Assembly (NCBI GenBank): GCA_036172245.1
Contig: JAYWIR010000093.1
Span: 124,001-188,000, forward strand
Direction: 5' to 3'
DNA length: 64,000 bases
DNA from: Raillietiella orientalis
Lineage: Eukaryota
The notes under the pieces are model-generated. The model had not been told where the DNA came from. It searched no databases and saw nothing but the letters and a program-made list of their open reading frames with translations. Below are positions 1 through 61,071 of this stretch, one piece after another (the stretch's first letter is position 1; every line of letters begins with the position of its first letter). Made by a program: the position numbers and the translations under genes.

Positions 1-199
1 ACTATCTTTAACAGCATCCTTGAACCCACTGACACGGCTCCCTGCAACTTGGCTGCCTTGGACGCGTGCGTGGGAAGCTTCGACTGGTGTCATGGCAACG
101 TCGCATTGCTGTGGTTTTCCACCCGAGTAAGCCGAAGCTTTTATTATTAAAATTTTTACATAGAAAAATTCCATAATGAAGTCATCTTTTTGGTCTTTT

Positions 200-2806
200 T
201 GGCTTTTGTTCTTCAGTCAGAACACATCGTTCTGATTGCCTTGAGGCACTTGTCCTTACCGACCCGCAGGCCGGAAAGGTCCTCATTGCTGTGGAAGAAA
301 GAGCGAGTAGCGCCCCAGCGTTGCTGTGGTTCCCTTCTTGCCTTCCTATTAATTACTTTTCGTATTCTTGGGTATACTTCATTTGCATCTTTTAACAGTC
401 TTGATATACTTTGATACCTTGACTAAACTAAATTGTTACATTTCTTTATCATGAAATGAAATATTCAGTGACACCGAACTCTCATCAAGTTCAATTATTG
501 ACCCAGTATCAGCAGTTCTATCAAGGCAGTCTAAGAAACCTTCAACTCGTTCTTTCATTTTATGATCACATGCCTGAAAGTAAGCAGGTAAGGGGATATT
601 TGTGGTCCAGAACAGGAATCATGAATCTGCAGACTGGTTATCACCTTGTCCGATAATGTATCTCTTTATACCTATTCTTCTCTCTATTAAGAAAGTGAAA
701 TGCAGTTGTCGCTAATGTCCGCCCTTCATAGTGCCACCCCTTCAACTCATCTGGATGTCAAAACCAGTATCTCACTTCCTGCTGGACTTCATTCTGGGTC
801 ATTTCGAAAAAGCATTCGGGCGGATTTCGGTCAGCAGCAAGGATGATCATAGATTCTTCGAAGTATTGGCGTGTCTATGTGCATAGTCCGGTTGTACGAA
901 ATATATCATCAGTTGATTGGAAAATGGGATGTACAAATATCCAACTCCAACACATTCCAGCTCTTTCATCAATCCCTCACCTGCTGACGGAGTCCTTATG
1001 CGAGGGCTCCAGGGTGAAGACATACAACTTCTGGGGCGACTATACAATCATTAACGGTTTTCTCCCTCTGTAATTAGCACTTGTGCAAGGGTTCCCTTTT
1101 GTTCTGCTGGCGTTCTTCCTGTTCAAAGCTTTCGTAAGAAACCAAATTTGCAGATGGTATTTTTTTTCGAGGCAGTGCAGTTCTTGTTGGCACTGCTTCT
1201 CGGGTTTGCTCCTTTGCTTCGGCGCTTTCGTTTGGCTACTGCTCATACTATATATTGGTCGTGTACAAATACATCCTTCAGTCTTGGGGGTTCCATCTCT
1301 TAAAGGTGCTCTCCGATAGAGTATCGCAGTGGAGGCAACGTATTTTGTTTCTTCTTCCACTTCATCAAGTGGGAGAGCCACTCTCGAGAGCAGGTTAAAG
1401 TGGTCCTCTTCGTGTTTCCGCTCCACTCCTGAGGAGGGTTTCATATCAAAGTCACCTTTGATGCTCGCATGCCCTTACTGTATCACCAAATATCTCCTTT
1501 CCCCGTCAAAAACTGGCCGAATCGCTTATGTTTTTCTGCAGCAGGCATCAATTGGGGAGCATCGCTGCCGTCATCCGAATTTGCAGCGCTCTTTTGCCTC
1601 TGTTTCTGAAACCATGTTGGAACGCAGGTGGTTCGTACAGTGGCAAAGATAAGTTTTCTTGAAGACACTGTTCAGTATCGCTCGGGAGTTTCTATAATAT
1701 CTCAAAGTTTCCCAAGGAAGTTTATCTTTTGCACGCTGCGTACCACGTTTTCCCGTCGGTGAGACGGTAAGCTGTTCTTTGGGGGACTTTCATCAAAAGT
1801 GCTCACATCAAAATGAATTTGTGATCATAGACTTCTCCTTCCACTCTCATTCGCAAATTAACTGATTCATGTGGTTTTCTTGTGATGTTTTTTCTGATGG
1901 TGAATTAACTAATCAGTGTGAGTTCAATGCCTCCTGACAATATTGGTTTAGGGTGCCGTCTGAATCACCAAACGACATCGTTGGTTATTGTGACACTGGC
2001 TGCTTGCTCTGTCCAAGAAATTGAATAGTGATGTGGAATTTCGGAGATTCCTACCAGCAGAGAATAAATCTCAGAGGAGGAATGAGTAGAGTACTCTGTT
2101 AAAAGGATGGTTTTCCGAATCATTCCGGGTGAGGCCAGTTGGCAACTTTTATGCACCGGGAGCTGTAAAGATTGTTTGCTCTGTTACTTTCGTTCACCCA
2201 ATCTTGAGCAAGAAATCGTTTGGTCCACCAGCAAGCATGAGGGTCTAAAAATTGATATGGCATCGTGATTCTTTCCGTGGGTTCTTTGCATCACCAAAGT
2301 TTCAATAGCACGTTGGGCGTTCCGAGGTCTTTAGGTCCAGAAATGGCAACGCAGTGAGGACAGTGTGTGAAGGGTATCCAAAACGAAGTCTTGCCGTTGA
2401 GTGCGAAGAAACCTTAGGTGTTTTGCATAATGGCAAGAAAAGTGAGTTGGGATTTCTTCGAAGGCCATTCGTTCCTATAGGGACGTCGTGTAATATCAAG
2501 GAGATTCTCGGATTAGTCTCAGTCTCCCATCGCAGCGTATTCCTTTTTCATGTTGTGAGGACAAAACGTTGTTCATACGCAGACCTTCGCCTGAGGCGTT
2601 CTCCCGGCATTGGATCTCTGATCGTTGGCTTATCCTCACGCTCTGATTTGCTTATCAGTTGCCTTTCGAGTCGTTGTGAAACTCCCTGGATATGATGTTT
2701 TTAAATGAAACGTTAATTACTGCCTGCAAATCGGAATCAAAGAAACTGCTGTTCGACAGTGTGCGTTCAATGCCTTCTGTCGATCGTACACTAAAGTGTC
2801 TTACAT
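200..2806 (-). pseudogene. Endogenous viral element: degenerate Mononegavirales-like L protein (RdRp), N-terminal half
   Basis: Minus-strand translation across frameshifts gives L motifs in the correct order: FFDSDLQAVI (2715-2744; cf. DxHLxSPI), FRRHP..GGIE (1923-1964; cf. GHP), ID..SWN (954-973; motif A), PIFQSTDDIFRTTGLCT*TRQYFEESMI (~845-929), HPDELKGWHYEGRT (716-757; cf. HxGGxEGLRQKGWT, motif B), IIGQGDNQ (GQGDNQ at 634-651; motif C), GSIIELDESSVS...HDKEM (motif D region), SQGIK/SISRLLKDANEVYP (~370-427). Former start probably ATG at 2806. Low-coordinate end is approximate. Confidence 0.9.
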
Positions 2807-2899
2807 GATTAGGAACTCAAACCATCACTTCATCAATACTACCTCTCAGACACATTTCATCACTCATCTACTTTACATTCTTCATTATATTCCCCCCCG

Positions 2900-3910
2900 T
2901 CTACACCACCAAAGGGACATGGAGAGGGTGCTGCCTTACTGGATGTTTGGGAAATTGGAGCAGCAAGGGAAAAGGACGAAATTGTTTGCATTTCAGCTTT
3001 TACCATCTTGCGAGAGAGGATCGCCGCGATGGAAGATGAAAATGTATTTGTGGGCCCCGTGAACTGGGCAGCAGCACCTACTACTTCAGGGACAGAATTC
3101 GAAGGAGGATAGCATCGGAAGCAACTGATTCGAGTGTTCCTTCCAGAGGATCCGCGACTAAATCCGAGTGCGGTTGACCAAGCGCAGCCAGAAGGTATCC
3201 GTTTTCTTCGCTCTTATCATTTGCAAGCGGATTTCTGCATGGAGTTTTCTCTCCACTCGTGTAACTACAAGCTTTCACTTTTTTAAGGCATCGCATATAG
3301 TGGGATGCGTTTAAGCCTCTCTAATTCTTGGTTGGCAGTGTATTCTAAGAATGCAATGAGCTCGTTTTATTGCATTCCATTTACACATTCACGCTCATTG
3401 ATTTGATGACTCCTTTATGAGATGTGAGTGAATTCGGAGACTCATGTGCTGGCCATGCAGACAACTGTAGGATATCCATTTAATCTTCGAGGTGCAAGAG
3501 CAGCGTTGATGATAAGAAACATACTGCAGGACACTGTCCGTTTCGTCGATTTGCACATCAAGTCGAGAGGGCAAAACGGGGCACAGCAGTACTCTGCAAA
3601 TGGGCATTCCTGGTTTCCAAGAGCTGATGGAAAAAACGAGACTTGGTCCAGTTGCGAGAACATACCACAGAATCTTCCGTGTGCCTCCATATCAGCTCTC
3701 TCCAACGCCTTCATGGGCACCAAAAACTCATACTCTTTCGCTGAAGAATCTTTTCAAATATAGAAACTCGGAGAAGTTGAAAAAAATGGGTTTATGTTTT
3801 GCTGAGCTCTGATGCAAACTGCTTCCAAGTCTGACACGTGACGGTAAAAGTGTTGTCGGTAGCCGCTTCTGCTCTATCATTGCCCAAGTCAACGGGTTGA
3901 ACACCATCAT
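2900..3910 (-). pseudogene. Degenerate ORF of unknown function between the G-like and L genes of the viral fossil
   Basis: Series of broken, intronless minus-strand frames (3728-3910, 3442-3723, 3081-3296) of similar composition to the flanking viral genes; no recognisable motif. Assigned by position only. Confidence 0.35.
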
Positions 3911-4049
3911 GGATAAGCCCCGCCGTGGCTGTTCTTTCTAATGATTGCGCGTATCGTCTCCTCTTCGCTTCGCTGCGCTAAACAGGGAAAATCTAATATT
4001 CATTGAACTATTCGTTGTACCTATTAAGTGTTTCGAGACCATTAGTCAA

Positions 4050-5790
4050 GTCATCCGCAGATACGACTTCGCTTGCGCAAGAGACTGAACCTTCTTCTAT
4101 ATTGTCTCAAATACTGGTAATCTGAGCATTTGTTAGTATGATGTACACAGTCGTGATGGGTAGGGCAAGAATTTTGGCCACCCGAAAGACTCCACACACT
4201 TGTCCACAGCACTTTGTTAGATATGATTGCTGTATGCACTTTCTTTTCTGTCAATCTAAAGTTGAACCATATCGAATATCTCGCTGACGTGTCAGTCGTT
4301 TTTTTCTAGAGCTTCTTTTGTATCAGTTAGCTGCATTCATTCCAGAACAGTCACAGATCGTAATCAACTCTATGGTGATATCGTCTCCTGACCATGTTTC
4401 CTTGATATTTTCGCCGGGTTCAATGTTGTTTGATTTAGCTGCAGCAGCATCTAGCCAGTTCCATTAGTGTTTTTCGTTTTTTACAACTTTTCTCATCTTC
4501 ATAGGTGAGTACTCCTCACTGATCTTGGGATATGGGAAAGTGCATATAGCAGTTTATCATGATCTTCCTTTGGGATCCCCCAAGACTAGAAAATATCTGC
4601 GTAGAGACAACTGCCTTCACATGAGTAACGTCTGCAACTTCATAAAACCGAGCTCTGATTATGCAAACCCTCAAGTGTTTCTGCAACCAGACCTTTCCAT
4701 GTTCTCATCGGGTGGCAGAGTGCACTGTCCTTTGATGCACCTTTTGACCCAAGTTTCCTCTTCTGGAGAACATCTCGGAGGTCCAGCATTCTACATTGTC
4801 CAGTGATTAACAGGCACTGAATACTCTGACCAAATTTGCAGATTTCACTCATTTCATGCATCCTTTCAAAACTCAATGACCGACTTTTTTTTCATTTTCT
4901 GTGTCATAGGAATCCCATGGACTACACGAGGGGTGACTCGACACAGTCTGTCCCAACCGGGATCAAAATCTCTGAAACTCCGTCCATGCAAAGAGAGACT
5001 ATCCTAGTGTAGATTTGGGAAACATCGCAAGACCCCAGAATGCCCAATCAAGTTTGACAGTCCATGTCGTTAAATAGCGTCCTACCAAAGCCAGTAATGT
5101 ATCGTGCTCCAATATGGTATCTCTCCGGAAGACACATTACATCAGTATGAGAGCATGCGAGATTTTTGTTCTCTCCAAGATCAGGGCAGCACTGAGCCAA
5201 ATTATTGTTCAACAGGCGTCTAATGCAATAGCTGCTGGGTGAGTTCCTGTTGGAGACGGGTGGAACCGTGTTTACGGCTTCCGCAGCTTAATCCCCCAGA
5301 TTTAGTAGCTCCTGTTTGATACAGGAAGCCGTTGTGTCTCTTGGACATGTGTTTTACTTTCTTGCGTATGTCTCAGGTGCTCGTGTTATGCTCGGGAGCG
5401 TTAGCCATCGCTACTGTCTTGTCAAAGGGGATTACACCATAGTGCACGGTAATCATCTTCCTCGGTTGCTCTTTGGACTTTGCTTAGCACACACCGTCCC
5501 TTATTTTCACTTACACATCGCCTTCGTGGATGTTGCCAGTGCTAATGCATTTGAGACAAGTTTCTTGTCAATCACGAAGAGAAAGCAAAATGCACATGTA
5601 TCTCAATACAGGATCAGATACACCACGTGCACAGATCGTGCATTTCCATGGCCATTGAGTACTCGCAGGTTTTCTTTTTTCCATTACGCTGACACGATTG
5701 ATGCTTTATCCTGCGTCACTGTTAGTCGAAAACCCATTGCCTGCGCGGGAACCACGTTTTTGACCTCGTACAAAGCCTCCTATTTAACGA
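4050..5790 (-). pseudogene. Endogenous viral element: degenerate rhabdovirus/lispivirus-like glycoprotein G
   Basis: Minus frame ...WKKENLRVLNGHG...DTCAFCFLFVIDKKLVSNALALATSTKAMCK...VC.../PEEDDYRALWC resembles the Cys spacing of class III G proteins; further Cys-rich segments near 4700; hydrophobic stretch VAKILALPITTVYIIL near 4130-4185 with basic residues (RRR..RKR) in an adjacent frame; ~1.7 kb long and upstream of L. Confidence 0.55.
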
Positions 5791-5829
5791 GAAATCTCAT
5801 TTTTCATTTTAATTTCAATTTAATGTCAT

Positions 5830-6600
5830 TCGATTGATATTTGTTCTTCGTTCATGCTGTCTTCTACCAACGTGTTGCTATTATTTCTATTGCAGTCGAA
5901 AGCTTTCTGGTACTCTTCCCTTTTGTGGGTCCGAATTTGCTCTTCTCCGTTCCCACAAGAGTGGAGGACAATGTTTTACGGGGAGGGAAGGGAAGAGAAG
6001 GAATCACAGATCGCCAGGGAGGTCCTCTGCATCCGACTTTGGATGCGAACAAGTGCCGGTTGTAATGTCGTTGACCGGCGCCATCAGGAAGCCTTCCCCA
6101 TGGAGACGGCTGTCCAGTGAATGACTTTCTGGCTGTTGTGACTTCTCCTAGAACCAGTCCATTTGTCCAGGATTCCGAGTATCCAGCAGAGAACTGCTAC
6201 ACACGAGGCTGCTGGCAAAGCATCCCACATCAGGAGGCGGCAAATGACTTTTGGGTCGCCCACCGGAATGTTCAGAATCGACAACAGTCGATTCCACATA
6301 GGGTGGAGGACCACACACTCGATGATTAGGTGCGGGAAGGTTTCCCGTTTTCCGCACCCTGCACAATTGGCATCTACACTCTCGTGGGGCCAGCAGGAGT
6401 AGCCATCGACACGACACGACACGTGCTGGAGACCGCCATGCAGTGAAGGGAGGTCATCAGGATGGCAGTCGTCCATATCGGACTGCAAGGTGCAAGGTGG
6501 CTTTGCCTGGAAGAAACGAAGCAGATCGCCGGCATCCACCTCCGGTTGGTGGACAGTTAGGAACGGCGGACTCCGGTGACCCTTGCCTCCTCACACCATT
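5830..6600 (-). mobile_element. 5'-truncated Tx1/L1-like LINE (ORF2 C-terminal zinc-binding domain plus 3' UTR)
   Basis: DANCAGCGKRETFPHLIIECVVLHPMW (C-x2-C..H-x4-C, zf-RVT type); very similar peptide and 3' UTR in the copy at ~19700-20250. Confidence 0.85.
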
Positions 6601-7234
6601 TATTTATTTATGCATTTTCATTTCCTCATTCCTTTTCACCGTTCGCTCCGCGCCTTCCCTGTGATTTTGCTTTTAACCTGATGCACACGGAGCCAACTCA
6701 AAGATCCCTGCCCCATCCTACAGCATTCATTTTTTTGTCTCCCGTTCCTGACTTTTCGATATCCCGGCCTGCGGGTCGGCGGGTCCCACTCTCAGCTCCT
6801 TCTGCCTTCGATTGGGAACCAGCTTGTTCCCGACCGGTTCATTTTTTTACTAAATGCACGCCCCGGAGTGACTGGCCGAAGAAATTCATCCCGTGGTAGC
6901 TGACGACCTGCGAGGAATGCTGGCCGGGATCCACGTGGTCTTTCTGCCGAAGAATTCGGCGACCCCTCCGAAGGAGAACCGCTTCCGTGCTCACGGCCGT
7001 CCCGATCCGCACTTCAGAGGTGGCTCAGGGCAACAGGAACGACGGGGGTTGCGAATTAGCGGAAGGCAAGCGCCTGCCTCCGGGCATTTGCAGCCCGACA
7101 CACGACTGGAAGGTTCATCCGAAGACCCCGAAAGCCGAAATCCCCGAACGATCAGAATCCCACCAGATTATAAAAACGTGGTTACCATATACAACCCTTA
7201 TTTTCTTTTCTTTGTATATATATATATGCCAAGA

Positions 7235-7620
7235 AGCAAAGATGGGCTGTCCTACAAATGGTCCTACAATAATCGTACATGATATATATTAATTCGTATA
7301 TCAGTCTTTACGTATTTATCCCTTTGAGTGCTGTGGACAAATATGTATGCGTTCGACAAATGTTTTTACACTGTACACGCGACATAAGTTAACACGATCC
7401 GTGTTTGAGACGGACGCGCGCACTGACGTTCTTATCATTACCTTGGCAACGACACTTTATAAGGTCAATCGGTAGAGCACGGGGTACGTGGAAAAGAATG
7501 CCGTCCACAGAGGTCACGACTGCGACTCGCGTGTCGTCAACACGGAACGTTTCAATCTGGTGAGCTGCTCACCCAAGGGATTGCTTATAGGACCCATTTG
7601 TAGGGCAACCCATCTTTGCT
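7235..7620. mobile_element. MITE-like non-autonomous DNA element (~390 bp)
   Basis: Imperfect ~35-bp terminal inverted repeats: AGCAAAGATGGGCTGTCCTACAAATGGTCCTACAA (from 7235) and TTATAGGACCCATTTGTAGGGCAACCCATCTTTGCT (7585-7620); non-coding interior. Confidence 0.7.
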
Positions 7621-8267
7621 CTTCTTCTGTTTAAGCCACGCGGCGAGGTGAGGGAAAGCACCCAGCGTACGGACAGGCCATGGAAGGCGTGGACGCCGAT
7701 GCTCTCGGTGTTTCAGAATTCTCGTGGGCATTGTAGGACGGGAAAGATCCCGCATCCAGTTACGTCACTCTCTCACTCTTCTCGTGCTGGGGGGCCTCCC
7801 CGACCTCGCGGTGATTGCCTCCAAACCGCCGAAGCGGCGCAGGCTCTCGACGTGAGCAAAATGCCCTCTCGGAACGAATGGGGAAGAAGGAGGGATGGGG
7901 CCGGCGAAGAGGGAAGGGCGGAGCCGGCTTCATGGGGATGAACGCGGACCCGCTGGTGCGAGGACGGATGGGTCGGCACAGAGGACGGAGATCTGAACCC
8001 AAACCACTCTTGCCCCATTTCTAGGAAAGCTGACGGGGTGCCCAGGCGCTGGCGGCATCGGAGGCCAAGGGCCTCCACCTCCGCGCCGGAAGTAGGGCTT
8101 GGGTAGCGCTCCCTTCTGTCCCCACAAGCCCGCGATATTCTTCTTCTGTCATCCGATGCGAGCAAAATCCCGAAAGGTCGTAAGAGATGTTAATTACACA
8201 TAATAAGCATATATATTTATTTGTAGTATTCTCAAGTGTATGTACATGTAGATATATGAACGCACAT

Positions 8268-9686: not shown

Positions 9687-9815
9687 CATCTATCTTTCCG
9701 TCCATCTATTTATCCATCTGTGTACCTGTTTGTCTGTCTGTCTATCTATCTCTCTATCCATCTGTCCATGTATGTATTTGTTTGTCTATCCATCTATCTT
9801 TCCATCTGTCCATCC
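9687..9815. repeat. Degenerate (CATC/TATC/TGTC)n microsatellite
   Basis: Visible tetranucleotide array directly before the LINE ORF1 region. Confidence 0.85.
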
Positions 9816-9829
9816 GCTCGTCGGCAATG

Positions 9830-11420
9830 CGCTGCGAAGGACTTCTTTCGCCGCTGCAGGCTCAGGAAGTCCACTCTCGGCGACCTCCTGAGGCGTCCGT
9901 CCTCGCTGCTGGGGGCTCACCCATGGGTCTCCTGCTGCCTCCCAGACTGTAACGTGTGGTGGCCGGAGGCACCAGAGCCCTGAATGACCACCCTAGAGGT
10001 TCCTCGTCCTCTGCGGAGAGTCCTTTCCGAGTAGCTGGGAGACCTCCTGCAGGACTAAACGCGGCAGTCCCGGACGGCCCCTTGCTACAACACTCCCCTC
10101 CCTCGGAGAAAACAGAGGTTCCAGAAGCCAGCCAACGGGGTGGGAGTCCTGCGGATTCGCAGGAGTCGAAGGACTCCTGGTCGGTCTCAAAACACCCAGC
10201 GGCCACGCGATGATTGCCTGAAGTCTCGAGGACCACGAGCACACGAGCAACCTCGGGATGAAAGCTCCCTTCCGTCCCATACCTCCTGCGCTCGGTGGAG
10301 GCTAGCCCACCCTCTTGTCTCCGCGAGAGATCGAGATGGGTCCTTTGGAAGGGCGGGAGACGAAAGGATGGATCGAGTGGCTGACGAGAGAGCTGCCGAC
10401 GGTACCCAGCTCGTCCCCACCACACCCCTCGTTGTTGTAGCAGCCCGAGCTGCCTGCCCGACGGCAGCGTGCATGCGACTCGTTGCTCGAGGTTTTCCCT
10501 CTGTGGGATTCCGGTCCCAGGATTGATTGGCCTCCCCTGCGCACGTCGGCATGGCGGAGACCTGCGACCCTCACCCCATAAGGGGAATACGCCCGCGGGT
10601 TTCCTCGTGGACATCTCGTTTGCCTTCTTACCCAACACCCCAGGGCATCGCGATGGAGGTAGGTGTGGGGGAGGCTTGTCCCCTCCCTCAACCTGCAGAA
10701 TCGAGGGCATCTACCCCAGGATCATCCCCGCCACCGCCGGCGAGGAGTTGGAGCGCCGTGGTGGCCGAGCCAAGCGCGGAAGCCATGGCAGAGATGGCCG
10801 CTTATAAGGCCTCCGGATACAAGCCATCGCTTGTATATAAGGTAGGTCCCTTATTCGAAAACCAGACAGCACGCTCTTTTAGTAGAGCGTTGCAAGCTCT
10901 AAACGTGCGTAAAGAAGATCTTGATGGTCTCACCGTGCTCAGCGGAGCGCAACGAGTCGAGGTGATATGTAAAGAACTCACCTTGGCTCAGCGCTTAATA
11001 AATACACCGCTGGTCATGGAAGGCCGCAAGATCTTCCCGATGACGATGGACCGCTCCGTCGTGGTTCATCTCACTGGCATCACTAACCGCATGACCCGGT
11101 CTGCGGTTAGTGAAGAACTTCAAAAATATGGAGAGGTGCACTCAATCTGACCTAAACCCACCGTTTTCGAGGGCTATAATAGCCTTTTCGGGGGTCAGGC
11201 TGCGGCACGTGTCACCGTAAAAGAGGATGGTGGGCTCCCCCACAAACTGGAGTTCGTATAAGAGCCGGTCGACCTTTGGTACGTGGGGAAGCCTCAGTAT
11301 TGCGGCTACTGCAATGCAGTAGGACAAATTCGTAAATGGTGTTAGAACATTGAGTGCCACCTGTGCGGAGTAAAGGGCCACGTTCGACGCGTGTGCCCTG
11401 AGCGCCCCGACGAGGAGTCT
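9830..11420 (+). mobile_element. Tx1/L1-like LINE ORF1 (gag-like, zinc knuckles), decayed and cut at its 3' side
   Basis: ARSWSAVVA...VSEELQKYGEVHSI*...WYVGKPQYCGYCNAVGQIRKWC*NIECHLCGVKGHVRRVCP (two CCHC-type knuckles, in-frame stops); ends abruptly at ~11420. 5' boundary approximate. Confidence 0.85.
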
Positions 11421-14400
11421 GCAATAAATTTGAATCGCGGAATGAACGTATCTATGTATCCTTCATACATGAGGGGGTGAAAACCAATCGGTTTTTCTCG
11501 ATAGTTATATGTTTCTTGGAATGAAAGGGACGGAATAGGTGCACCATTCACAGACAGCGATGTATTTTGCACATGCGGTGGGGAGGCCACGTAGTGATAC
11601 GAGCCGCATTTATTGCGGTTGATTTGTTAGTTTGCAGCACGGGTTGCATCTGCAAGTGTAATGATGGCAAGTTGTAGCTGCTCTATGGAGCTTGCCATGA
11701 GCGCAACATCATCTGCATATGCAAGTGGAATGATACAGGGGTGGTGGTGCTTCAGGATTTTGATAAAGGGTTCGAGCGCGATGTGAAATAATAAACCACT
11801 CAGCGGGCACCCTTGGAGTACTCCGCAACGGATTGGAATTGGGTGGGTTGGTCCTTCCGTGGTTACAATTGCTGTTGTAGATTCCGAATACTTTCCGGAT
11901 ATGATACCATGAAATTGATGACCAGCCCCTAGTAAGGTCAACTTGTCTAGGATGAGCTGGTGGGGGATGGAGGAAAACGCGTCTGTGAAGTTTATTCACG
12001 CGATGGCGATGTCATTGTGGGGGACCTGGGAGCGCTCGACTAGAGTGGTCAGGGCAAAGTTTTGTTCTAAAACACCATCATAAGGAAGAAATCCCTTCTG
12101 ATGATGTCCAAGGATTCCACTGTTGACGATGCACGTTCGCAATCGTTTCGCTAGCATTTTACAGAACAGTTTGTCCATGGTGTTGCAGATGGCGATGGGA
12201 CGGAATTGCGTTACGTCCGTGGGGTCAGATGCTCTAAATTTTGTAATTAGAACTGTACGTGAACTCTTCCGGTCTTTAGGGATTCGCAAGTGCTGAATAC
12301 AAACACTGTAAAGGGCGGCAAGACAAGATCCGTATGGATCAGCTTTTAGGAGGAAGGAGTAGAGGATTCCGTCATTTCCAGGAGCAGTGTCCTAAGAATT
12401 CCGTAATGTGAGCACAACTTCCTCAGGGTAATATTCGTGCAATGACCTTCCCAAGAAGCTGGAGTTGAAGGGCTTTTCTGAAGAATTTCATTAATATTCT
12501 TTGCTGAGAATTTCTCCCTAAAGGTGGTTTCAACTGTCGATAGAGAACCGTTGAATTGGATGGGAGTGGGTTGCGGAAGAGAGCGGATGGCTCGCTTTCT
12601 GTTGCGTCGATACAAGATTTGGAGATGCTCTGGTTAGGTTAGGCGAAAAGCATTGCAGGAAGCAGCTGGTCTTCTAGAAGGGTTGAAGGGACGTATGTTG
12701 AATGTAGAAATGACTTTGTTGAGGATGTCAATGGTACGTTGTCAATTGTCGTTAGACTTTGGTTGCGTTAGGAGAGATGTGAGACTCGGGGTGTAAGCAC
12801 TGAGCACAGAATGTGTTTGTGTGTAGTATATGCTGAGAGTTTGGCAATAACTGTTGTACTTCAGGATTACTCGATGCGGGTTCGTTGCATGAGCGCAAAG
12901 AATACGGGGGAGTTAGATGTATGAGTGCCGCGTCCTGTTGTGAGGTTCGGAAACAGGGGAGTGTGATGGTACTTTCGGAGGTTCAGGGGCTGTCAAAACA
13001 CAGTTTGCTGTGGGTAAGACATCCGTCATTTCTAGGACTGTAGGTGTGACAGGTTCGTGTGTTGCTATTGCAGCATAATGGTTGAATGTGCGTATCGAAG
13101 GAGGAGCACGTGGTGTAGAAAGTGGTTTTTTGCGTTGATTTTGCAGTCGCATGTGCCATCGAGTATGATTGTATGATCCACGCACTGAGGTAAATGTGGC
13201 TTTACAGTTGGGAATGCTACAATGGAGGGAAAGGAATGCCACGTGAAGCTGCGGGGAGAGATGTGTTAAAGCATTGGTGGTGGTGTGTAGGATAGGAGAC
13301 ATCCGAGTTGTATTTCCTACAGAACAACTTGTGTTTGCGAAAAGGTAGCTTGTGTGCAGTGGTTAAGTGGTGTTTGAGAGACCGAAGCGTTTTGCTGGCA
13401 TCGAGAGTTTGTGTCGTCAGGGACAAGAAGGTATTATGGAGCTTAGGATACAGTATACGGGAAATCCCACTAAAAGGACGTTGTTAGATGTAAGAGCCAC
13501 ATCGTTGTTGGCAATAGGCGGAAGTGGAATGCCCGTGAGTGGAGGGGTAGTAGGACGGGAAGTAAGGAGGCGGAAGTGGAATGTCCTTAAGTGGGTGGTA
13601 ATTGGACGGAAAGTGAGGGTGAGGACACAATAGAGGTAGGAATGGCGCTACCGAGAGGTGTGGTTTTTTTACACACTGACGATGAGATCGACGGAATCTA
13701 GGTGGTATTGGATTGTGATTGTATTTTGCACAGGGTTCTTTGAGTATTTTGTAGGGGACAAGGTAGCAGCAGTATGTAATGGTTGCGAGGTGGAAAGTGA
13801 TGGGTTGTCTTCTCTGTTAAGTATTGGAACAGAAATTGATTGTGTGATGCTATGCATGGTGAGTTAAGCCTTCTCTACAGGGCATGATCTTTGATCCGCC
13901 ACAGGAATCCTTCCGAGGGATCGCAGCTTATAGGGAGACGTACTGCCGCTTATGGTGAGAGGTTTGGAAGATGGGTGGGGAGAGTTGACAAGACGCATTA
14001 GGGGTGTTAATTTTCGTGGGCATCACGCGAGGCTGATTTTCCACATCAGCAAATGTGGGTGATGAAGAGGACGGTAGATTTCATTTGACGCGAATCCAGA
14101 GGTGATTGGGCAATGTGATCTGTTTCTAGTTGCACAGGGATGGAAGAATCAGTCAGTGAGATAATTTCGGCCGGCAAAGGTTGGAATGCGTCTTTGTGTT
14201 GTTGGAAAATAGCAATTGCTTCCTGCAGTGCAGGCGTTATCACAGGTTATGGGTCGGGAATCATATTGCTGTGAGGTTGACATTGAGGTGTTGCATTGAG
14301 CGGTGGTTGGTAGGTGCTTTATATTTCGGTGGCAGTCGCTGATTGATCTTCAATCGGGTGTTCGTATGTTGTTATGTTATTAGTGCCAGGTTATTAGTCA

Positions 14401-17369: not shown

Positions 17370-18470
17370 TCATCTCGTTACCCTCCTGCTTTTTGTTTTG
17401 GTACGCGAGTTTCTTTTCAAGTCGACGTTCTTTCTTCGACTTTTTTTTTGATGTTGCTTCCTGCTACCCAGGCTCCTGGCCGGTTCCCTCGACCTTGTCG
17501 GCGGTGTTTTCTGGGGTCTCGAGTGTGGCCTGCGCCTTGGGCGCGGGCGGTACAGCTTTCGCGGCAGCTTTTGCCGCCTGCCTTTTTTGCAACAGCCGGG
17601 CGCGTTTCTTCAGGTACCTTGTGGACACCACGCGCATGGCTGCTTGTGGGCACACCCCTCGTGTGACCCATTGTGCCGCATACTTGGCACTGTACGTTGG
17701 GGCACCTCTTTTTGAGGGCCCGACGTATTGCAGGAGCCACAGTATTTCGGCTTTCCCACATACCAGAGGTCGACGGTTTCGCCGCCGACCACCAGTTTGT
17801 GGCGAAAGGAACAGCCCTCTCGGACGGTAATGCGTGCAGCCGTGAGACCTCATTGCAGTCCGGTATAGTCCACAAAGGAACTAGGATTTGACCATTGTGC
17901 ATGCCCTGTCCTTATTGTTCCAACGCGGAGCGCACGCTTTCTCTACGCATCCGTGCGGTTACACCTAACAGGTGGACCACCATGCTGTGATCCACCGTTA
18001 TGGGAAGAAGCCTGCATTTCCCCATCACTACTGGGGTTTTGAGCAGACGCTGGGCCAGATCTGCCTGTTCGCAGATCACCTCCACGTACTGCCCCCGCTG
18101 CGGATGGTCATCGCGCAGGGCTCCTCCTCTTGTACGTTGAGAGCGCGCATTCTCTTCGAGAATTCGCGCGCGCACTCGGGACAATAAAGATTGCCTACCT
18201 TGTAGAATAATGAGGGGTTATATCCCTCCTCCACGTAGGCGTTTACTTCCGCGGCGTCTGCAGGCGTTGGCGCTGCCACGACGGTGCTCCACGCCCGCGC
18301 TGCAGCGGAGACCGATTCTGTGGGGGCGGATGACCCTACTTCCATCGTCTCTGGGGACGACGTTGCCACCGCCCCCTCGCACTCACTGGCGGCCGTGTCA
18401 GAATTTGCTTCCTGAGCGACCACCGAACCACTGAACACTTCACTTTGAGGGGAGGGTTTCCGGCGACGAG
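17370..18470 (-). mobile_element. Tx1/L1-like LINE ORF1, inverted, decayed
   Basis: ARAWSTVVA, GYNPSLFYKVG, VDLWYVGKPKYCGSC, CQVCGTMGHTRGVC; homologous to the ORF1 at 10730-11400. Confidence 0.85.
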
Positions 18471-18489
18471 GAGCACTCAGAGAACGCGT

Positions 18490-20420
18490 CCACCCCGCAC
18501 AAGCAAGTTGGTCGACTGTGTCGACCAGGAACTCCTGCTGGGGCTCCTGAAACGCTTGGGATTTCCGGACGTCTTCCTGGCTTACCTGCGCTTTTGCTGA
18601 CTCTTCGCGTTAATTAACATTACATTCAGCGGCCGGCACGTTTATTGCGTACCAATTCACCGCGGCATAAGGCTGGGTGACTGCCTGAGCCTCCTGCTCT
18701 TCTGCATTTACTCTGGCCAACCTGCCGAGCTCGTTCCCCGGCACGCCTGCCGTGTCGGGCTATGCCAACGACCTTCTGCTCCTACTACCCGGGTCCACCC
18801 CGGCATCGGCGCTTGAAAACTTCTTTGAGCTGCTGCTTCGCCGGACGGGCCTTTGGGTGAACAGGGAGAAGTCGTCGTTACTTCAAACTATCACGTCGTG
18901 GGGCGTACGGCCAGACTGGATCTGCTTGGGAATCCCCACGGCTTGGTACATCAAGTACCTTGGCGTTCCGTTTCGGGACTTCTGCGTTGCAGAAGCCTGG
19001 TCCGACCGTCTCCAAAAAGTGGAATTGGCGATCGGACCGTTTCGGAATGGCAAGTTTTACTTGCCAGAACGGGCCGCGGCGTGGAACTCTTTCGCGGCTG
19101 CCCTCCTTCGCCTCTTATATTTTGTGTGCCTCCTCCACCGATTATGAAAAAACCGACCGAGGTTTTCCTAAGAAAAGCTCTTTTGGGCACAAGGAAGTCC
19201 CGTGTCCGATTAAAAGACTTGTGCGCTTCACGCAGGGACGGTGGCTTGGGCCTCCTAACTGTGGAGCGCATGGAGCGGCAGCTCCAATTCAGAAGACTTG
19301 CCCTCGCCTCGAAGTCTTGGCCTTCTCGCAAACTGTACTGCCTGGCTTCAGGAGTCAGTTTCTGCGTGGGCCAAGATCAGCGGCACGAGTGAGGCGGAGT
19401 ACAATTGTCACCGTCGAGGACCCAACGCTTGACAGCCTCTGCAGGAGATCATAAACAACCCGCGCAAGTTTCTGTTCGCTTCCTTGACCCCCCTTGCCCC
19501 CGTGCTGTTCTCCCTCAAGAACATCAGGAAAGCAACGAACGAGTATTGTGGGAAGTGTCCTGCCTCATCCGAGGCAGGAGAAATCCATTGAAGGCATGGA
19601 CGACTCGGGAGTTAGCGGACGCAGAGACCCCGAGCGTCCCGTCTAAAGGAATTGTGCGCTGGAGAGAGCTGCTCGGCATACCTCCGGAGGAGGTGAAGTG
19701 GCCCCCAGCGTGCTGAGATTCTTGCACCCTGTCCCTGGAATGGGAGGAGACGGCGCTGCTAGTGTTCAATTGGGGACTTCTTTGCAAAGCATGCCTCTTC
19801 CATTGGACATCAGGGACAGTGGATGCCAATTGTGCAGCGTATGGGGAACAAGATACCTTCCCCCACCTCATCATCGAGTGTGTTGTCCTTCGACCCATGT
19901 GGGATCGACTGTCCGCGATTTTGAACATTCCCCACGGCGACCCGAAGGACATTTTCCGTCGCCTCCTGATGCAGGACGCCCTGCCAGCAGCCGCGTGTGT
20001 GGCAGTTCTCTGCTGCATACGCATGATCCTGGCAAAATGGACTGCGTCCAACAGAGGACATAACAGCCGGAACGCCTTTTACTGGGCGGCTCTCAAGATT
20101 GAGAAAACTTCCCAGTCGTCCCGGCTAACACCATTACGTTCAGCACTTGTCAGCATCCTGTCCTGAACAGGATGCAGAGAACCACTCGGAGCGAACAGTG
20201 ATCCCTTCCCAGCCCTCCCTTCCTCAAAAACATTTCCCCTTCCTTGGTTTTTATTTGATTTTTCTGTTTTTCTTTGTGGCTTACCCTTCCCCATCGCATC
20301 CTGAGGGGATCTCTGCGTCCTACAAACCGGCAGCGGCAAGTGTGTCCAGATAGGCAGAACCTCGTGTTCTGCCTGCACATACTAAACAACACGAGACTTT
20401 ATTATAAAAATTTTAATAAT
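18490..20420 (+). mobile_element. Tx1/L1-like LINE ORF2 (RT to 3' end), decayed
   Basis: RGIRLGDCLSLLLF, YANDL, IKYLGVP, RDGGLGL, CAAYGEQDTFPHLIIEC, then a 3' UTR ending in an AT-rich tail at ~20400. Confidence 0.88.
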
Positions 20421-24722: not shown

Positions 24723-27700
24723 TCATCTAACTTGATTGTTGCAATTAAGGATTTTGCCAGATGACACCGAGTTCCTGCTTTTCAGAAGGGCTTGCAGTGC
24801 TTCAGGCACTAACATTAGTTTCTCTTTTATGTGACTAGGAAGTGCCTGCTTTTGATCATATACATGTAAATTTCTCTGCTTGTCTGTAAACTGAAGCTTC
24901 TGCCCATCCACTTGTAGTTTTAGTTCAGTGCCATCTTGGAAGCAGATCAAAACTTCTCCTGAAGGCAACTACAATGGAATGAAAACAAACTCAAAAACCA
25001 ATCAACATCTCACCTGTGTTGCTTTACCCACGCTTGGAACAAAGACTGACTCGGATAATTGTTTGTTTTCTTTGCTAGAGTTCTGCAAAACATGTGAATC
25101 AGGCAATGGTCTTCGACCTATGGTGACAGGAAAAAACGCCTGCCCACTTGCTGTTGATTCTAGATTTTCCAACAAGGTTTCCAGCTGAATGCAGTGACCA
25201 TAGGACTGAGAAATTCGTAACATGGTGCTTCCTTAATTCTCCTCACACTTACTTCCTTAGCATGAACCCAAAGTGGCTGCAGATCAATAGGAAGTTTACC
25301 AGTTTCAAGGTTTGGGTTGATTACATGATCGATTCCACTGGGTAACTGTAGACTTGCACTCTCATTACTCTGCCTGATGATTTTTGAGCCTGAAAGCGTA
25401 AGCATAAGATTAAGCAGTCAGAAAATTGTTAGCTAAAACCTTCATAAAAATTAGCTTCGAAAGAAGAGCTTTCCATTAACTGACATTTGGCTAAATTTGT
25501 GTATAAGGTCACCTTAGGGGTCTTAGCCTTTACTAAAGAAGCAAACCTATGCGCATACATGTATTTCTTCCAGTATCTTTCTGGAAGATTTTCATAAGTG
25601 AAAACATCATGAACACTCTCTGATGCAATGTCAACTGGTTCACCTCGCAGAGGCACTCCTTTATCTTTATTAGGTTGGTAGAGAATAATCTATCATGAAT
25701 GATAAACAAATATTTTAATAGCTCCTCTCCCTTACCTTCATACCATCTGGCGTAACAAAACATACATCCATGACATATTCGGAACCTTTACGGATTTTTA
25801 AAAACTCAATACAAATACTGCCATCTTTAAGAATGTTAACCATTGCATTTTTTGTCTTCTGTCTCATTGGTCTTAATCGAATAGTATTCAGTGGGGGACA
25901 GACATGGCTTAGTTTACTCTCATGCTCAGCACTTATAGGTTTCCACAAGTGACTTGATGCCTCATGATTTTCATGATAATGTCCATCTGATTTCAGATGA
26001 TCTGAGTTACACGAATGTTTGTGAGTACACCTCTGACAAGGTACATGCACACAAATATGAGAACTGTTCTTGGGAAAACAATCTGATAAGCAGCAAAGTC
26101 TATTAGGAGCACAATGCAAGCATTCAGAAGTCACACCATGGTGACTTGATGCCAAAGAGGAATAATCTGAATGCTGATTTGGTAAACAGCAAGATGGAGG
26201 ATAATTGCAAATCTGGGAATGATCTTTGTAAGAATCCGATAAAGGCAATCTGGATGCAGTAAAGCATGATCCAGTATTTGGAGAATTCTTCTGAGAATAA
26301 GCTGATCTCATGCTGAGAAAGAAAGGGAATGTTATCTGTCACTCAATTCCGTGAAATACCCTTACTGTTCTTTAGAATCAGATGTGTAATGGTGGTTACA
26401 ACTTTCGTTGTGGGATATCTGATAAACTGGAGTATTCAACGTACCATTCCCACTGTCCATTGAATAACGCTTCTGCAACTGTCAAAGACATGGACAATGT
26501 TCAGAAAGGCAAGCGCACTAATCACCGTGTTATTGATTTCTTTAGTATTATTGGCAGCTTTCTGCATAAAAGGATGTTGGAAAATATCCTTCAATTTTAT
26601 GCGATTTGTAGGAATTTTCTGCAAGAGTAAAGATATCAAATCTTTGGCTTCTGGAGATAAATAGCTTGGAATCTGTAAAAAATTTTAGCAAAAAAATTGT
26701 CGTGTGCATGATGAGCTCACTTCATAATCACCCATAACAACTTTGGTCAACGTGCTTTTTACATGATTTGTTTCAAAAGGAGGTTTTCCCACAACCATGG
26801 TATATAGCATGCAACCCAAACTCCACAGATCTGCTTCCAGTCCATGAGAGCTTCTGGTGGCTACTTCAGGTGATATGAAATTAGGTGTACCACACATTGT
26901 CATGTGCTTTTCTTCAGGATATGATAATTGAGTGGCTAAACCAAAGTCAGCGATTTTCTAAAAATTCATCAATAGCACTAATTCACAACAGTCCAGAAAG
27001 TACCAGCTGCATGTCTTTTGTCAACAGAAGATTGGCTAAAGTTAAATCTCGATGAAGAATGTTATGAGAATGAAGATACTGCATCCCTTCCACAACCTGA
27101 ATCATGTAATAGCCAGCTGGAAAAACAAACGAGCATGAATTTAATCAACATAGTTCATATTTTAGAAATCTTCACAACGTAAGTATATAGACACACTAAG
27201 ATATTCTGTACTGCTTTTTCATTTTTATGTTTATTTCAATTAAAAATAATTTCGTTCAGCATGTAGTAATTAAATGCATTGCTCAGTATTTCTGGGTGAA
27301 AACTGCACCACTAGGTGTAAATCACTTCCACAGATGTCATATTACAAGTTGCTGAAATAAGTTATTACATCTGTGTAATAGGTCATATATTGTGACAAAT
27401 ATTCACTCTAAGATAAGAACTTTAAATTAATGATTTGAAAGTAGGTATGCAAGTTGAGACTTTTGAAGCCCTACTACCAAGAGTCAACACCACAAAATTA
27501 GCAAAGTTGGAAATAATGATTCTAAAGCAATTGTAATAATTGTAATAATAATAAACTTTAATATCATCTGTGAGTATATGCTCAAGAAGTAGGCAGGTGA
27601 AAACAAAATAAGAAGAGAAACTTCCTACCACATGTACAAAACATAGCATTTATTTGGAAAGCATTTACAATGTACTACAATATAAATCAAAGTAGTGTAT

Positions 27701-34244: not shown

Positions 34245-37200
34245 CTAATCACTGTCTCCTGTTTCACTGCGACTTTTGCCGAAATTCTGACGGATATTTT
34301 CAGAGATGGACCGTATGTTTTCCAGGTTGACTTCGTCACGATGCTTTAGGTTGGATGTCGTGCAGAGTTCATCGTCGGACGTAAGTGCATGCCTCAAAAC
34401 ATCGCACTCCGAATCGTACAAGGCATACCCATCAGCTACCAAATAAGCATCTGGATCGTAAACACGGGAGGATGCACGGGAGGACACGCTGGTGTCGTCC
34501 ATATCCCCCTCCAATCCGGGATCATTGAAAACCGAATTCAATTCGCTGATAGCCGCTTCAGCATCTGTCAATCCTGCCTCATTCACAATTGAAAGATTTT
34601 CTAATGCAGGATCATCTGTGATATAACCGGCCGATTCGGGTTCGGCATCCACTTCTTCCTCTCCGTATTCTTCATCATCGCTCCACTCTGACTGGCTGGC
34701 TTCGTCTAGAAGCTGGTTTTCCAACTTATTTTGATTCTGTTGTGACCAATCATCATGTGACAGGAAAGTCCACTGATCTTTCTCTGCATTCTCCATTTCT
34801 GCTGGAGTCATATTATCGGTTTTAACAGCACCTGGACTGTTGGTTTGCAACGGATTCTCGGAGCACCTGGTACTTGGCACAAGCAAATAAAGCGACCACA
34901 CAAATACCTGCTTACCTAACAGATCCGGAGATTCCAAGCTTCGCATTCTTTGGCAAAAATGGACGAGACTGCGTCGGTCTGGGAATACGCGAGTTTCCTG
35001 CTATATGTGCGGCCGAGATGCAGTCTCTGAGTTTGGGCTCGGCTGATGCTAATAGTAGTTCTTCCTGCCGCTTAGCAGCTTCGGTGACCTCCTGCAACTT
35101 GTTTGAACCATGGGCATCCTGCCTCCAATTCTGCATCTGTCTTTTCTGGTTTAAAAGTTCAACCTTTTCCACTTGTTCAATGAGCTTTTTCAATTCTTTC
35201 TCGAAACTGGGGGCACGAGAACATTTACTAACGATAGGGGGTTTCGGAGGTGGCGGAGGAAAGTGACGCTGCAATTTCTGCAGGGCGGTGGAATCAACGC
35301 GCTTGGGAACGTGGGATACAAAACCACTCCTTTCCGTCTGACAAGATTCATCTTTACGCATTTTGTCTCCTTTTTGTGAAACATTGAAAGTGGATTGGAG
35401 CTTTTCGGAAAGTGTGGGTACTGAAACCAAGTTACACCTATTTGCAATGGAAGTTGTCTGAAAAAAGAAAAAGAAATAATCATGTTCAGAGTAAATACCT
35501 TAATTTCAGTAAAGATGACAACAAAGAGAACAACATAACTTAACGCACATAAACTTTGCATAACAATTTGTGCAAACTACTGTACTGACTGAGGATTAAC
35601 TCAAATTATTGTACACATACATTCACATTCAACCATTCTCAAACAGAGGGCTTTTTTAAGTTTACTACCTGTGAATCAGGAACAGCACTGCTCAGATTTC
35701 GACGCGGTGGCTCAGGGGCTGCGGAACTCTCTTCTGTGCACCAAGACAAAGATGGTGAGTACCCAACATGCGGAAACCCTGGTAAAGCATCGGTCCTTTG
35801 AGAGACTGACTGGCCATCTGAAGCTTTATTGGAAGAAGCTTCCTCGTGAACATTTCGATGGAAAGGTACTGGAGGTGGTGATGGTGAAGAGGTAGAGCTG
35901 AGATTCGAATGGTTCAATGAACTAATTTCATCAACAGAAGAATGAGCACGGGAACTCATGAAACGAGAATTTGGATCTTGAAGACTTTCATTAGACAAAT
36001 GATGCAAAACAGCACCAGAACGAAGGCGGGTACGAATGTTCGCTTCACGAGTTTGTGGACCTGCTACCACAACTGGCTGTGACTTTGGAGTAGGTGGTAA
36101 AGGTCCACGACTCCGTTGAGGGGATCGAGGCCATACATGCACATTTGTACGAGGGATTCCACCTTTCGGTGGTGTACAAGATTTGCACACCAAACATGCT
36201 TGCGACGGTGAGGCTACTTGCCCCAATGGCGGGAGGAGAGGATCCTTCTCTTCAGCAGGATCCTCATGATCCTTGGGTATTCTTGAATTAGGAGACAGGC
36301 GATGAGAAGAAACGGGACTTTGACAAAGCTGTGCCATCTCTCGCACACGATGGGGAGCAATGCTGCTCACAGTCCCCACTTGATGCTGTAGCTGATTAAC
36401 CAATGTAAGAGGTGTAGCCACACTTCCACAAAGAGATACGCCTATCAGACAGACCCACACATCAACTCTGAAGTCTCGCACTTTTTTTTCCTACCAATAG
36501 TTGGGGTCTTGCGTTTGCTAACTTCTTCTATCCTAACAGTGGCACCTTGTTTACGATCTGTCAAGAAATAAGTAGTAATCTCAATTTTGGGTTTGATTTT
36601 GATTTTCCCTCTGCTCTGAAATTCGTATGGGCCATTTTGCAGCCGTTGATGCAATTCTTCAGTAATATGTATGTGGTTAGGCAAACTTGTCAAGTCCATT
36701 CGACAGGCTCGATTCACAGCTAAACCCCAAATATCATATTGAGGTCGACGGGCACCTACCACTCCAGCTATTACAGGGCCACAACTGATACCTAAATTCA
36801 TACAATATGCATTTAGCAGAAATATATGGCATTGACCATCATCTTACCAGCACGTAACTGGAAGTTACCAGGAAGTAATTGCAACTGCTCTCTCATAGTA
36901 AATACAAACTCCACCAAATCTTGCAAGTGGTTATCATCAGTTGATCCACGAGACTCTGGACGTAAACCAGAAACAACCACATACATTGGTCCAAAGGTTT
37001 TTAACTTTTCAAGAGTGCGAAACCGCTCTTCAGTTAGCAACTGATCGAAACGAGATATGACATCCGATAGGAGTCTCAAATATTCACTGCCATGTTGGCT
37101 TTCCAATTCTGTGAAACCTGTCACAGTAGCAAACAAAATGCCCACTAGATCATAGCCCTGGTGGTACAATTCATGACCACCAGGCAGAGTATTGACATGG

Positions 37201-49121: not shown

Positions 49122-49399
49122 AATTGGGCTATATCATTTCACTTAGGAATTCATCGTACTTCTGTCAAAGACTTATCTGTAAATAACATTTTCTAACATG
49201 AATACAGGAGTTTTCGTGAGGGTTCGGGAAGCAATTTTTTTTTTTTTTTTTTTTTCAAAAAAACGAAAGGAGACGACACACAACTCTTGAAAGATATCTC
49301 CTCCGAAACCAAACGTAACATGAAAATCGAATGTGGTTTTTCGATTTTTTCCTTTTTTTTTCTTCCTTTACGAAACAAACAAAAAAGGCCCTACATGTA

Positions 49400-59500: not shown

Positions 59501-61071
59501 TTTGGTGACTAGTAATATAGGCACTAATTGCAACAGCAGAGACAAGATTTTGCAGAATGCCAGACGTTAATACCCAATAGCAGCACAGCAGCCAGTGAAT
59601 GGTTTCACAGTGATCTGCTTATTGATTTCAAATGTTTGCTGCATGCAAATTTGACATTTTTTGTCCGTACTATCAACCTGAGACGTGATTTTCTGTCAAG
59701 ACCGCCTTGCTGTTATATATTTCAAACGCAGCTTTCTTTTGTCAATGCTGAGCACACAGGGCAAATGCTATTATCATTGGATTTGCAACGCTATGTGATG
59801 CACTGCTCAGTGAATATGACAAACTCTGGTAATTTTAATATGTATACGTTAGGCTTTTAGCAGTTTTCGTGTTTTTCCAAGATTACTCATATACAGTCAA
59901 AATTGGTTTGACTACCCTCAATATTCTTGTGATGGGCATATGTTTCCTCTCTCTGCTTTTGTGCAGCAGATCCATATATCATGCATATTTGCTGAAGAAG
60001 GTTAGTTTGCTGTTGATAACTCTGTTGCTAAAAAAAAAAAAAAAAAACTTGTTTTTTTTAGGAGACTGTTGTTTTTTTTTTATCGCATTTTGATTTTAAT
60101 TTGTCTTTCAATGATCAATTAGAATTCCTCAATTGCTGGTACATAATGATCATTATAAATGATATACTCATCATCGTGGGATCAGTACTTAAACAGTGCA
60201 TTGAAGATCAGGTGCTCTTGTAAAGTAGAAGCTGTAATTAAGGTTGTTTCAGGGAACAGATAGTCTTTGGAATACTTGTGGTGTGCTCCTGTCCATAGGA
60301 AATTTGTTAGTTTGGGCAGGGGTGCTACGTTACCTAGGTTTCTTCCCCAAATACAACGTAAGTCTTACGATTTTCTTCATAATTAACCTTAACCACCTGC
60401 TTCATAACCATGCAGATCATGATTCTCACCTTAAAATGTGCCCTGCCTAATCTTCTTCGTTTCCTTCTTTGTGTTCTTTTGCTTTACTGTGGATTTGTGT
60501 TCTGTGGTTGGGCTGCTCTAGGTCCATTCCATCCAAAGGTAAAGTCTGTTACTTCCGATTTCGTTTCTTTCAAAGTATCTTCTGATATTCAGTTCCGAAA
60601 TTGGTCTACTGCATCTGAGAGTCTATTTTCATTAATTAATGGAGATGACATGTTTGCAACATTCATGTCACTCAGCAGCAATTCCTATTTGCTGTGGGGG
60701 TTTTCCCGCATATATCTGTATGTTTTTATTTGCTTGTTCATTTATGTAGTGCTCAGTTTGTGTATAGCACTCATCATGGATTCTTACGAGAATGTAAAGG
60801 TGAGTGTATGATGCCCTCGCATTTTTTTTAAATCTTTCGTAGACATTTTATAGTGAAGGCTTCCCTTCTAGCGAGATGTTTAATTTTATCGCTTCTGGAA
60901 TAGTAACTTCAAGGTCTTCACCTCCTGCAAGTGGGTTTTTCCATGCTCATACATCTTATTCACACAATAAAGGAAATTCCCCGTGAGTTCGGAATGATTT
61001 ATTGAAATGTTTTAACCATTTCTTTCTTTTCCAGAGATAATCTGAATGAAACAGCCCCTTTGTTATCATAA
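56589..61071 (+). CDS. trpml: Mucolipin (TRPML) endolysosomal cation channel, 12 coding exons, ~597 aa
   Basis: Exons 56589-56703, 58899-59083, 59125-59316, 59364-59511, 59556-59828, 59882-60000, 60062-60211, 60253-60357, 60416-60538, 60593-60799, 60843-60982, 61035-61071. KLKVFFMNP, FPYKLLLQ, GVLRYLGFF..YN, pore SLFSLINGDDMF, C-terminal dileucine ETAPLL. First and last exons less certain. Confidence 0.94.

Follow-up and report, generated by a model that had tools for sequence, protein, structure and literature searches.

A decayed fragment of a lispivirid-like L polymerase gene in DNA of a probable invertebrate

Fragments of the L (polymerase) gene of mononegaviruses are a well-known class of fossil in animal genomes. 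This paper concerns one such fragment, at positions 356-1103 on the minus strand of a 64,000-nucleotide stretch of DNA (contig JAYWIR010000093.1, positions 124,001 to 188,000). The whole of this stretch is called the window here. The fragment is very probably a non-retroviral endogenous viral element (EVE), an internal piece of the L gene of a lispivirid-like mononegavirus that has decayed as a pseudogene in the germline of what is probably an invertebrate host.

Mononegavirus fossils keep individual genes and not whole genomes, with NP and L predominating, according to the available portion of one survey (PMC11089739). The same portion names borna-, filo-, paramyxo- and chuviruses as the only sources in vertebrates. 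Elements derived from L have also been described in aphids (PMC11978097, available portion). The bornavirus- and chuvirus-like L fragments of vertebrates, and the rhabdo-, nyami- and chuvirus-derived ones of aphids, are like the fragment in that each is a single-gene, pseudogenised piece of L in a host chromosome. Unlike these, the fragment has a Lispiviridae-like source, and as far as their available text goes, this family is in neither of two vertebrate surveys. In the second of these (PMC11521997), the word Lispiviridae has 0 occurrences.

Lispivirid-like EVEs with about 23% identity are reported from the protist Perkinsus olseni, in the available part of PMC12548735. For animals, a search of full-text literature found no report of a lispivirid fossil, with the proviso that supplements may list more. 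The family's ICTV profile (PMC12642352) gives arthropods or nematodes (Ecdysozoa) as hosts, and 3'-N-P-M-G-X-L-5' as the gene order, where X is an unknown. The order N-P-M-G-X-L is also seen in the IMG/VR genomes L116, L118 and L121, and the partial genome L017 has G-X-L.

The L homology of the fragment is established transitively, by way of full-length L proteins. An exhaustive phmmer search of 1,835,955,588 proteins, with the X-read frame of 596-1474 as query, returned three matches at E<=0.001. These are P0001 (2049 amino acids (aa); E 4.1e-11, 33% identity, residues 563-688), P0002 (E 4.3e-7) and P0003 (E 9.1e-7). All three match Pfam PF00946, Mononeg_RNA_pol, with E values from 1e-101 to 1e-161, and the two full-length ones, P0001 and P0003, both have capping and methyltransferase domains. 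The searched library includes chu-, borna-, nyami-, arto-, xinmo- and rhabdovirus families, none of which reached E 0.001. An origin from a chuvirus (G-N-L or circular) or from a bornavirus (M-G-L transcript) was considered and rejected, as the significant matches are solely lispivirid-like.

Compared with the window by tblastn, P0001 aligns with residues 565-687 at 976..611 (E 2e-13), 660-745 at 693..439 and 757-773 at 413..363, which is collinear across three frames. A scan of IMG/VR with back-translated IGQGDNQ yielded 113 loci and 71 motif-bearing open reading frames (ORFs) of at least 300 aa. Of these, 68 were L-like and kept, and three unrelated ones (L040-L042) were dropped. The 35 IMG/VR L ORFs of at least 1100 aa repeatedly hit the same place in the window, the best being L035 (residues 616-744 at 976..596, E 1.6e-5); L017 aligns there as well (757-863 at 741..439, E 4e-4). 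Nothing was returned by a scan of viral contigs for close relatives with a piece of the window, by metagenome scans with A1 and P0004, or by a viral-contig scan with P0056. Pfam found no viral family in the three plus frames, and Rfam gave 0 matches in the whole window.

A frameshift-aware local aligner was written for this work (BLOSUM62, gap 11/1, frameshift 8). It aligns residues 521-776 of P0001 to 1103..356 with a score of 351, where 10 shuffled proteins reach 53-90. When the frameshift penalty is raised to 12, residues 565-773 align to 976..363 at a score of 311. A 52-sequence lispivirid profile scores 326 on the fragment, against 43-56 for 6 column shuffles. The fragment and its RNA-dependent RNA polymerase (RdRp) motifs are as follows.

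356..1103, minus strand: decayed lispivirid-like L polymerase fragment, residues ~521-776 of the 2049-aa P0001
363-976, minus strand: firm core of the L fragment, P0001 residues 565-773
947..976, minus strand: RdRp motif A region, with GIDERAGMCW in the place of L-protein GIDFSSWNLCW
701..748, minus strand: RdRp motif B region, degenerate (ELKGWHYEG...), ELKGWHYEGRTLATTA aligned to GGFEGLRQKGWTLCTI
634..657, minus strand: RdRp motif C, exact, IIGQGDNQ
439..504, minus strand: RdRp motif D region, GSIIELDESSVSLNISFHDKEM facing GLHVKLDETWVGMDILTYGKEI in the alignment, reading GSIIELDESSVS...FHDKE
363..410, minus strand: motif E or the conserved stretch after it, SISRLLKDANEVYPRI aligned to RISRLLTDVNEIYPTL, in a third frame, reading SISRLLKDANEVYP

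The letters A to E follow what we take to be the usual nomenclature. All five motifs lie on one strand in the correct order and spacing, and A, B, D and E are degenerate yet recognisable. An earlier reading of this DNA, made from the sequence only, had pointed to an exact GQGDNQ at 634-651; it is indeed there, on the minus strand from 651 to 634. A frameshift follows directly after motif C, and the conserved VCRFMIPV (634-605) resumes in a different frame. Roughly estimated, about 3 of every 100 windows like this one would contain QGDNQ by chance, so it is weak evidence on its own. The series of collinear L motifs that the sequence-only reading described holds for A to E within 356-1103, and does not hold as L similarity running from 200 to about 2800.

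Order and spacing of motifs A to E are shared with the L proteins of Lispiviridae, especially of the termite, cockroach and grasshopper clade that includes Isopteran arli-related virus OKIAV103. In family and fragment alike, IIGQGDNQ is succeeded by VC(K/R)(L/F)MIPV. Unlike a lispivirid L, the fragment represents only ~12% of the gene, is broken by stops and frameshifts, lies in host DNA and has no detectable companion genes.

What is detectable of L comes to ~0.75 kb, starting at residue ~521 or 565 and ending at 776. Similarity above the core is weak, reaching 1103, and the downstream limit is at ~356. The best alignment of the core (976 to 363, 614 bases) contains 8 frameshifts and 4 in-frame stops, and at least 4-5 of the frame changes are unavoidable. 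Neither strand has a long open frame in the first 6 kb of the window. Within 1-6000, one minus frame contains 92 stops, and the longest minus-strand stop-to-stop piece there is 144 aa (1043-1474). The heavy decay of a negative-strand virus L fossil that had been proposed is borne out by the best alignment. Host genes and fragments of long interspersed nuclear elements (LINEs) lie on the same 64-kb contig, which together with the stops and frameshifts is what is expected of a non-retroviral EVE. The region 1-6000 has no repeats in the remainder of the window, where its sequence is single-copy. In all, 356-1103 is an ordinary, old and fragmentary endogenous viral element, from a virus family that is poorly sampled.

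P0001 has its named relatives in Cat Tien Hospitalitermes Lispi-like virus, the Macrotermes lispiviruses, Jimsystermes virus, the Isopteran and Blattodean arli-related viruses and Hubei rhabdo-like virus 3, with Lishi spider virus 2 and Tacheng tick virus 6 further outward. These viruses, from termites, cockroaches, other insects and beyond, are Lispiviridae. The solved L proteins are all at about the same distance from P0001 (E 1e-70 to 1e-26).

Maximum likelihood trees were made of the RdRp core, with an X at each break of the window fragment. In a tree of 56 rows, the fragment is placed within a 26-row lispivirid clade with termite viruses nearest (SH-aLRT, the Shimodaira-Hasegawa-like approximate likelihood ratio test, 99). 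In a 40-row tree, its exclusion from the 28 lispivirid rows costs 25 log-likelihood units (approximately unbiased (AU) test, p 0.024). Tree and test put the fragment inside Lispiviridae. Within the insect subclade no position is preferred (AU p 0.3). Identity to any compared L is at most 41% (P0001, 199 columns), and the same bound applies to everything in the searched libraries. This indicates an unsampled lineage, as had been suspected. The fragment would record a past lispivirid-like infection of the host lineage, by a family that is known almost only from metatranscriptomes.

Beyond 356-1103, comparisons with L give scores at the level of shuffled controls (nulls). Residues 777-2049 score 39 on window positions 1-370, with nulls of 36-49; the window ends 355 bases past the fragment. 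The N-terminal part (1-520/560) of P0001 and P0003, each taken singly, scores 55 and 60 on 1090-6000, with nulls of 49-76. The N-termini of 42 lispivirid L proteins, also taken singly, have their best places scattered; 16 of the 42 fall in 5500-4100, and 3 are near the expected diagonal, where ~2 are expected. A 528-column profile of this part (52 sequences) reaches 48, with nulls of 47-70. Banded on the diagonal fixed by the core, with +/-240 and +/-120 bases, the L profile scores 39, which 17 of 40 and 10 of 40 nulls also reach. A candidate L N-terminus at 5344 to 4313 (L116 L residues 64-390, score 85) was rejected, being within 25 nulls with a maximum of 91.

Four aligned L sequences share invariant blocks that begin to be expected only 45-80 residues upstream of what can be detected; they are absent where collinearity would place them. 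The fragment is therefore taken to be truncated at ~1103, and not merely faded. With residues 1-520 and 777-2049 both at null-level scores, this is not a full-length L.

The sequence-only reading had gone further and described 200-5800 as a contiguous G - unknown - L block. This is exactly the order of the lispivirid genome plan. Unlike in that plan, G and X go undetected in the window and the L piece has no L start running into it. Frameshift-aware alignment, of the kind that had been suggested for the block, recovers L at 356-1103, and no G, X or upstream L above shuffled controls. The frame of about 1 kb between the supposed G and L is not open (one minus frame of the whole 1-6000 has the 92 stops given above), and the X proteins of four lispivirid genomes do not match it. 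The Cys-rich frame ending in a transmembrane segment, thought to resemble a glycoprotein, is not open either, and Pfam, solved structures and lispivirid G proteins give no match to it. Between 1500 and 6000, the longest minus-strand stop-to-stop piece is 117 aa.

Five lispivirid genomes supplied the G, X, M, P and N proteins for frameshift-aware comparison with 1090-8000, and all are within nulls save for two marginal G scores. The G and X references, used singly and as profiles, were those of L017, L116, L118 and L121; these are distant genera and fast-diverging proteins set against a decayed locus, so that power is low. The G of L121 reaches 87, where the highest of 40 shuffles is 80, at 5835 to 4547 and with ~35 frame changes. 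The profile of four G sequences reaches 65, where the highest of 25 is 59, at 5007 to 3995. In intervals between junction motifs fixed beforehand, G, X, M and P are inside nulls, the G score being reached by 6 to 17 of 30. By tblastn, all 35 lispivirid ORFs taken against the whole window give E<0.1 only at 348-949.

The three minus frames of 2701-6000 show no L or glycoprotein among solved structures, and the best rows there and for 1-3000 are unrelated proteins at E 0.097-2.4. Pfam has nothing for 2701-6000. For the longest pair of ORFs in the block (5292-5834 plus, 1043-1474 minus), the ESM Atlas has no usable match, with a best score of 0.83, and both look like chance ORFs. Two further candidates were dropped: a zinc-finger-like start of X at 1206 to 1135 scored 52 with a null maximum of 56, and runs of A7-8 were tried as gene ends, of which by our own estimate a few are expected by chance at such a composition. 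A multi-gene fossil, in the sense of at least two collinear viral genes on one strand, was not found; one gene fragment is detectable. The remaining ~4.7 kb of the 200-5800 block have no demonstrable viral coding sequence.

The block does contain a short direct repeat.

1941-1883 and 2784-2693, minus strand: 23/28-nt repeat with AAAAACATCA units, direct repeat, two copies in the window

Its 23-nt part has exactly two copies in the window (1914-1936, 2757-2779), where 0 are expected from 100 shuffles. On the minus strand, an exact AAAAACATCA follows 21 and 54 bases after the two copies (1883-1892, 2693-2702); there is one more copy of it elsewhere in the 64 kb. This AAAAACATCA tail resembles the lispivirid junctions TTAGAAAAAC, TAGAAAAAAC and TTAATAAAAAG of L116, L118 and L121. 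The second 23-nt copy is near the start of L as predicted from collinearity (~2670-2700, our own arithmetic), and a banded profile finds no L N-terminus after it. Sites with TAGAAAAAAC at one mismatch are not enriched, at 12 in the window versus 9.8 expected. The repeat with AAAAACATCA could be a fossil gene junction or a host repeat. It is the strongest remaining argument for a multi-gene reading.

The composition of 1-6000 is even, with a GC content of 0.39-0.485 in 400-base windows, and shifts at ~6000. The minus strand of the block is richer in A than in T (on the plus strand T is 0.313 and A 0.245). The coding sense of lispivirid genomes is likewise A-rich, with A at 0.31-0.33 and T at 0.28. 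Separately, a perfect 16-nt inverted repeat, CCGACCCGCAGGCCGG / CCGGCCTGCGGGTCGG at 259-274 and 6764-6779, nearly brackets the even block; no longer similarity is seen between its two sides.

A number of points weigh against reading 356-1103 as a lispivirid-like EVE. The end branch of the fragment is long, at 1.63 changes per column where the median is 0.5, and the fragment diverges more than any pair within the clade does. The group used in the AU test was chosen after the first tree had been seen, and the tree is without named rows of Chuviridae, Bornaviridae, Nyamiviridae, Artoviridae, Xinmoviridae and Rhabdoviridae. Lack of a Mononeg_RNA_pol match at 350-1000 had been put forward as a ground for giving up the L assignment, and a direct match is absent: PF00946 is found neither at E<=1 in the three read-through minus frames of 1-6000 nor at E<=10 in 67 stop-to-stop pieces. 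This is because the frame switches every 30-130 residues, which breaks a profile match. A phmmer comparison of the three minus frames of 1-3000 with all solved structures (E<=10) shows no L protein. Two word-indexed searches of 5.8 billion proteins with the 439-1047 read-through gave nothing, one of them looking at proteins of 357-2000 residues and the other, which used a region of a 2000-aa frame, at proteins of 1100-3500 residues. Neither a poly(A) tail nor a target-site duplication nor an empty orthologous site came to light. The public sequencing runs listed for the sequence comprise a single low-coverage DNA run and no RNA run. In the DNA run, no read or contig bridges the fragment to its flanks; integration therefore rests on the assembly and the disabling mutations. 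The missing bridge and the missing Pfam match would also suit a chance match, or contaminating viral cDNA misassembled into the contig, and this is very improbable indeed. Chance is excluded by an E value of 4.1e-11 in 1.84e9 proteins and by five ordered motifs over three frames. As to contamination, four stops and at least 4-5 frameshifts within 614 bases are incompatible with a replicating virus. In addition the public DNA run, which may be the source sample itself, has 100% identical short contigs at 315-495 (181 bases), 1822-1972, 2064-2214 and 7876-8000; it covers 7 of 30 bins, and the uncovered parts are uninformative.

That the whole of 200-5800 is one multi-gene fossil (G-X-L, perhaps M-G-X-L), made from genomic, antigenomic or read-through RNA and faded in all but the RdRp core, is considered unlikely. 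The lispivirid order with its unknown X between G and L speaks for it, as do the even and A-rich composition, the repeat pair with its resemblance to TAGAAAAAAC and its position near the predicted L start, and the two marginal G scores. These scores are the best of at least 8 tests, are at incompatible places, and vanish in the junction-delimited interval. L 1-520/560 is free of signal in three tests despite the conserved blocks just upstream, the junction-like sites are not enriched, and X, M, P and N, tblastn, Pfam and the structures for 2701-6000 all come up empty. The choice of genomic, antigenomic or read-through template has no basis in demonstrable sequence, and the fast divergence of G and X leaves it a small possibility. 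It would take the same low odds for the evenly composed 5.6-kb block to be the relic of a lispivirid-like virus, (M)-G-X-L, copied at genome length and not from mRNA, with the repeat and AAAAACATCA units as fossil junctions and only the RdRp core still readable. If true, a multi-gene origin would have borne on how RNA genomes that have no DNA stage are copied into a germline; it did not hold. Retention of the fragment for an RNA role, for example by giving rise to PIWI-interacting small RNAs that act on related viruses, is another improbable explanation. Such a role is common for arthropod viral elements, and the fragment adjoins a LINE-dense region. Against this, the window has a single copy of the sequence, and its protein frame is destroyed.

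A single-gene EVE of this kind may have arisen when the enzyme of a host retrotransposon reverse-transcribed viral RNA, going by what is known of such elements and by the LINE fragments a few kb away. Truncation would have taken place at or after integration. The copy would then have been fixed in the germline and have decayed as a pseudogene, and presumably it no longer has any function as a protein.

The rest of the window has the following features.

25715-26338, minus strand: PLK4 polo box 1, piece of a host gene
36445-38330 and 48498-49133, minus strand: membrane adenylate cyclase exons, with the C2 catalytic domain, a conserved domain and the N-terminal membrane region
60383-60811, plus strand: mucolipin-like ion channel, piece of a host gene
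6084-6590 and 19524-20078, minus strand: LINE-like ORFs, a similar pair, repeated
~11590-12001, minus strand: LINE reverse transcriptase (RVT_1, E 7.9e-16)
10527-11150 (plus strand) and 18076-18609 (minus strand): further decayed LINE copies

The PLK4 box is best matched by chains 4g7n/4nk7 (44 bits), which we take to be Drosophila proteins, versus 36-40 bits for other PLK4 chains. The C2 domain of the adenylate cyclase has only ~84 bits with AC5. This moderate similarity of the host gene pieces to solved vertebrate proteins suggests an invertebrate. Judged by these genes the host is an animal and looks like an invertebrate, which is consistent with a lispivirid source. The LINE copies, including a zinc knuckle, form a GC-rich stretch at 6-21 kb that adjoins the viral fragment. 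A tetranucleotide (ATCT)n array is present at 9688-9812, and can also be read as a 44-nt tandem repeat.

Some features of the reference lispivirid proteins were also noted. The G proteins of L116 (RVKR) and L017 (RPKR) have a basic, cleavage-like site followed by a hydrophobic stretch rich in Gly and Ala, and those of L116, L118 and L017 have a hydrophobic stretch close to the C-terminus. The N-terminus of the L017 X protein has a CCCH-type zinc-finger-like motif (weak Pfam matches, E 0.008-0.07). In motif C of L116, ADNQ is found in place of GDNQ.

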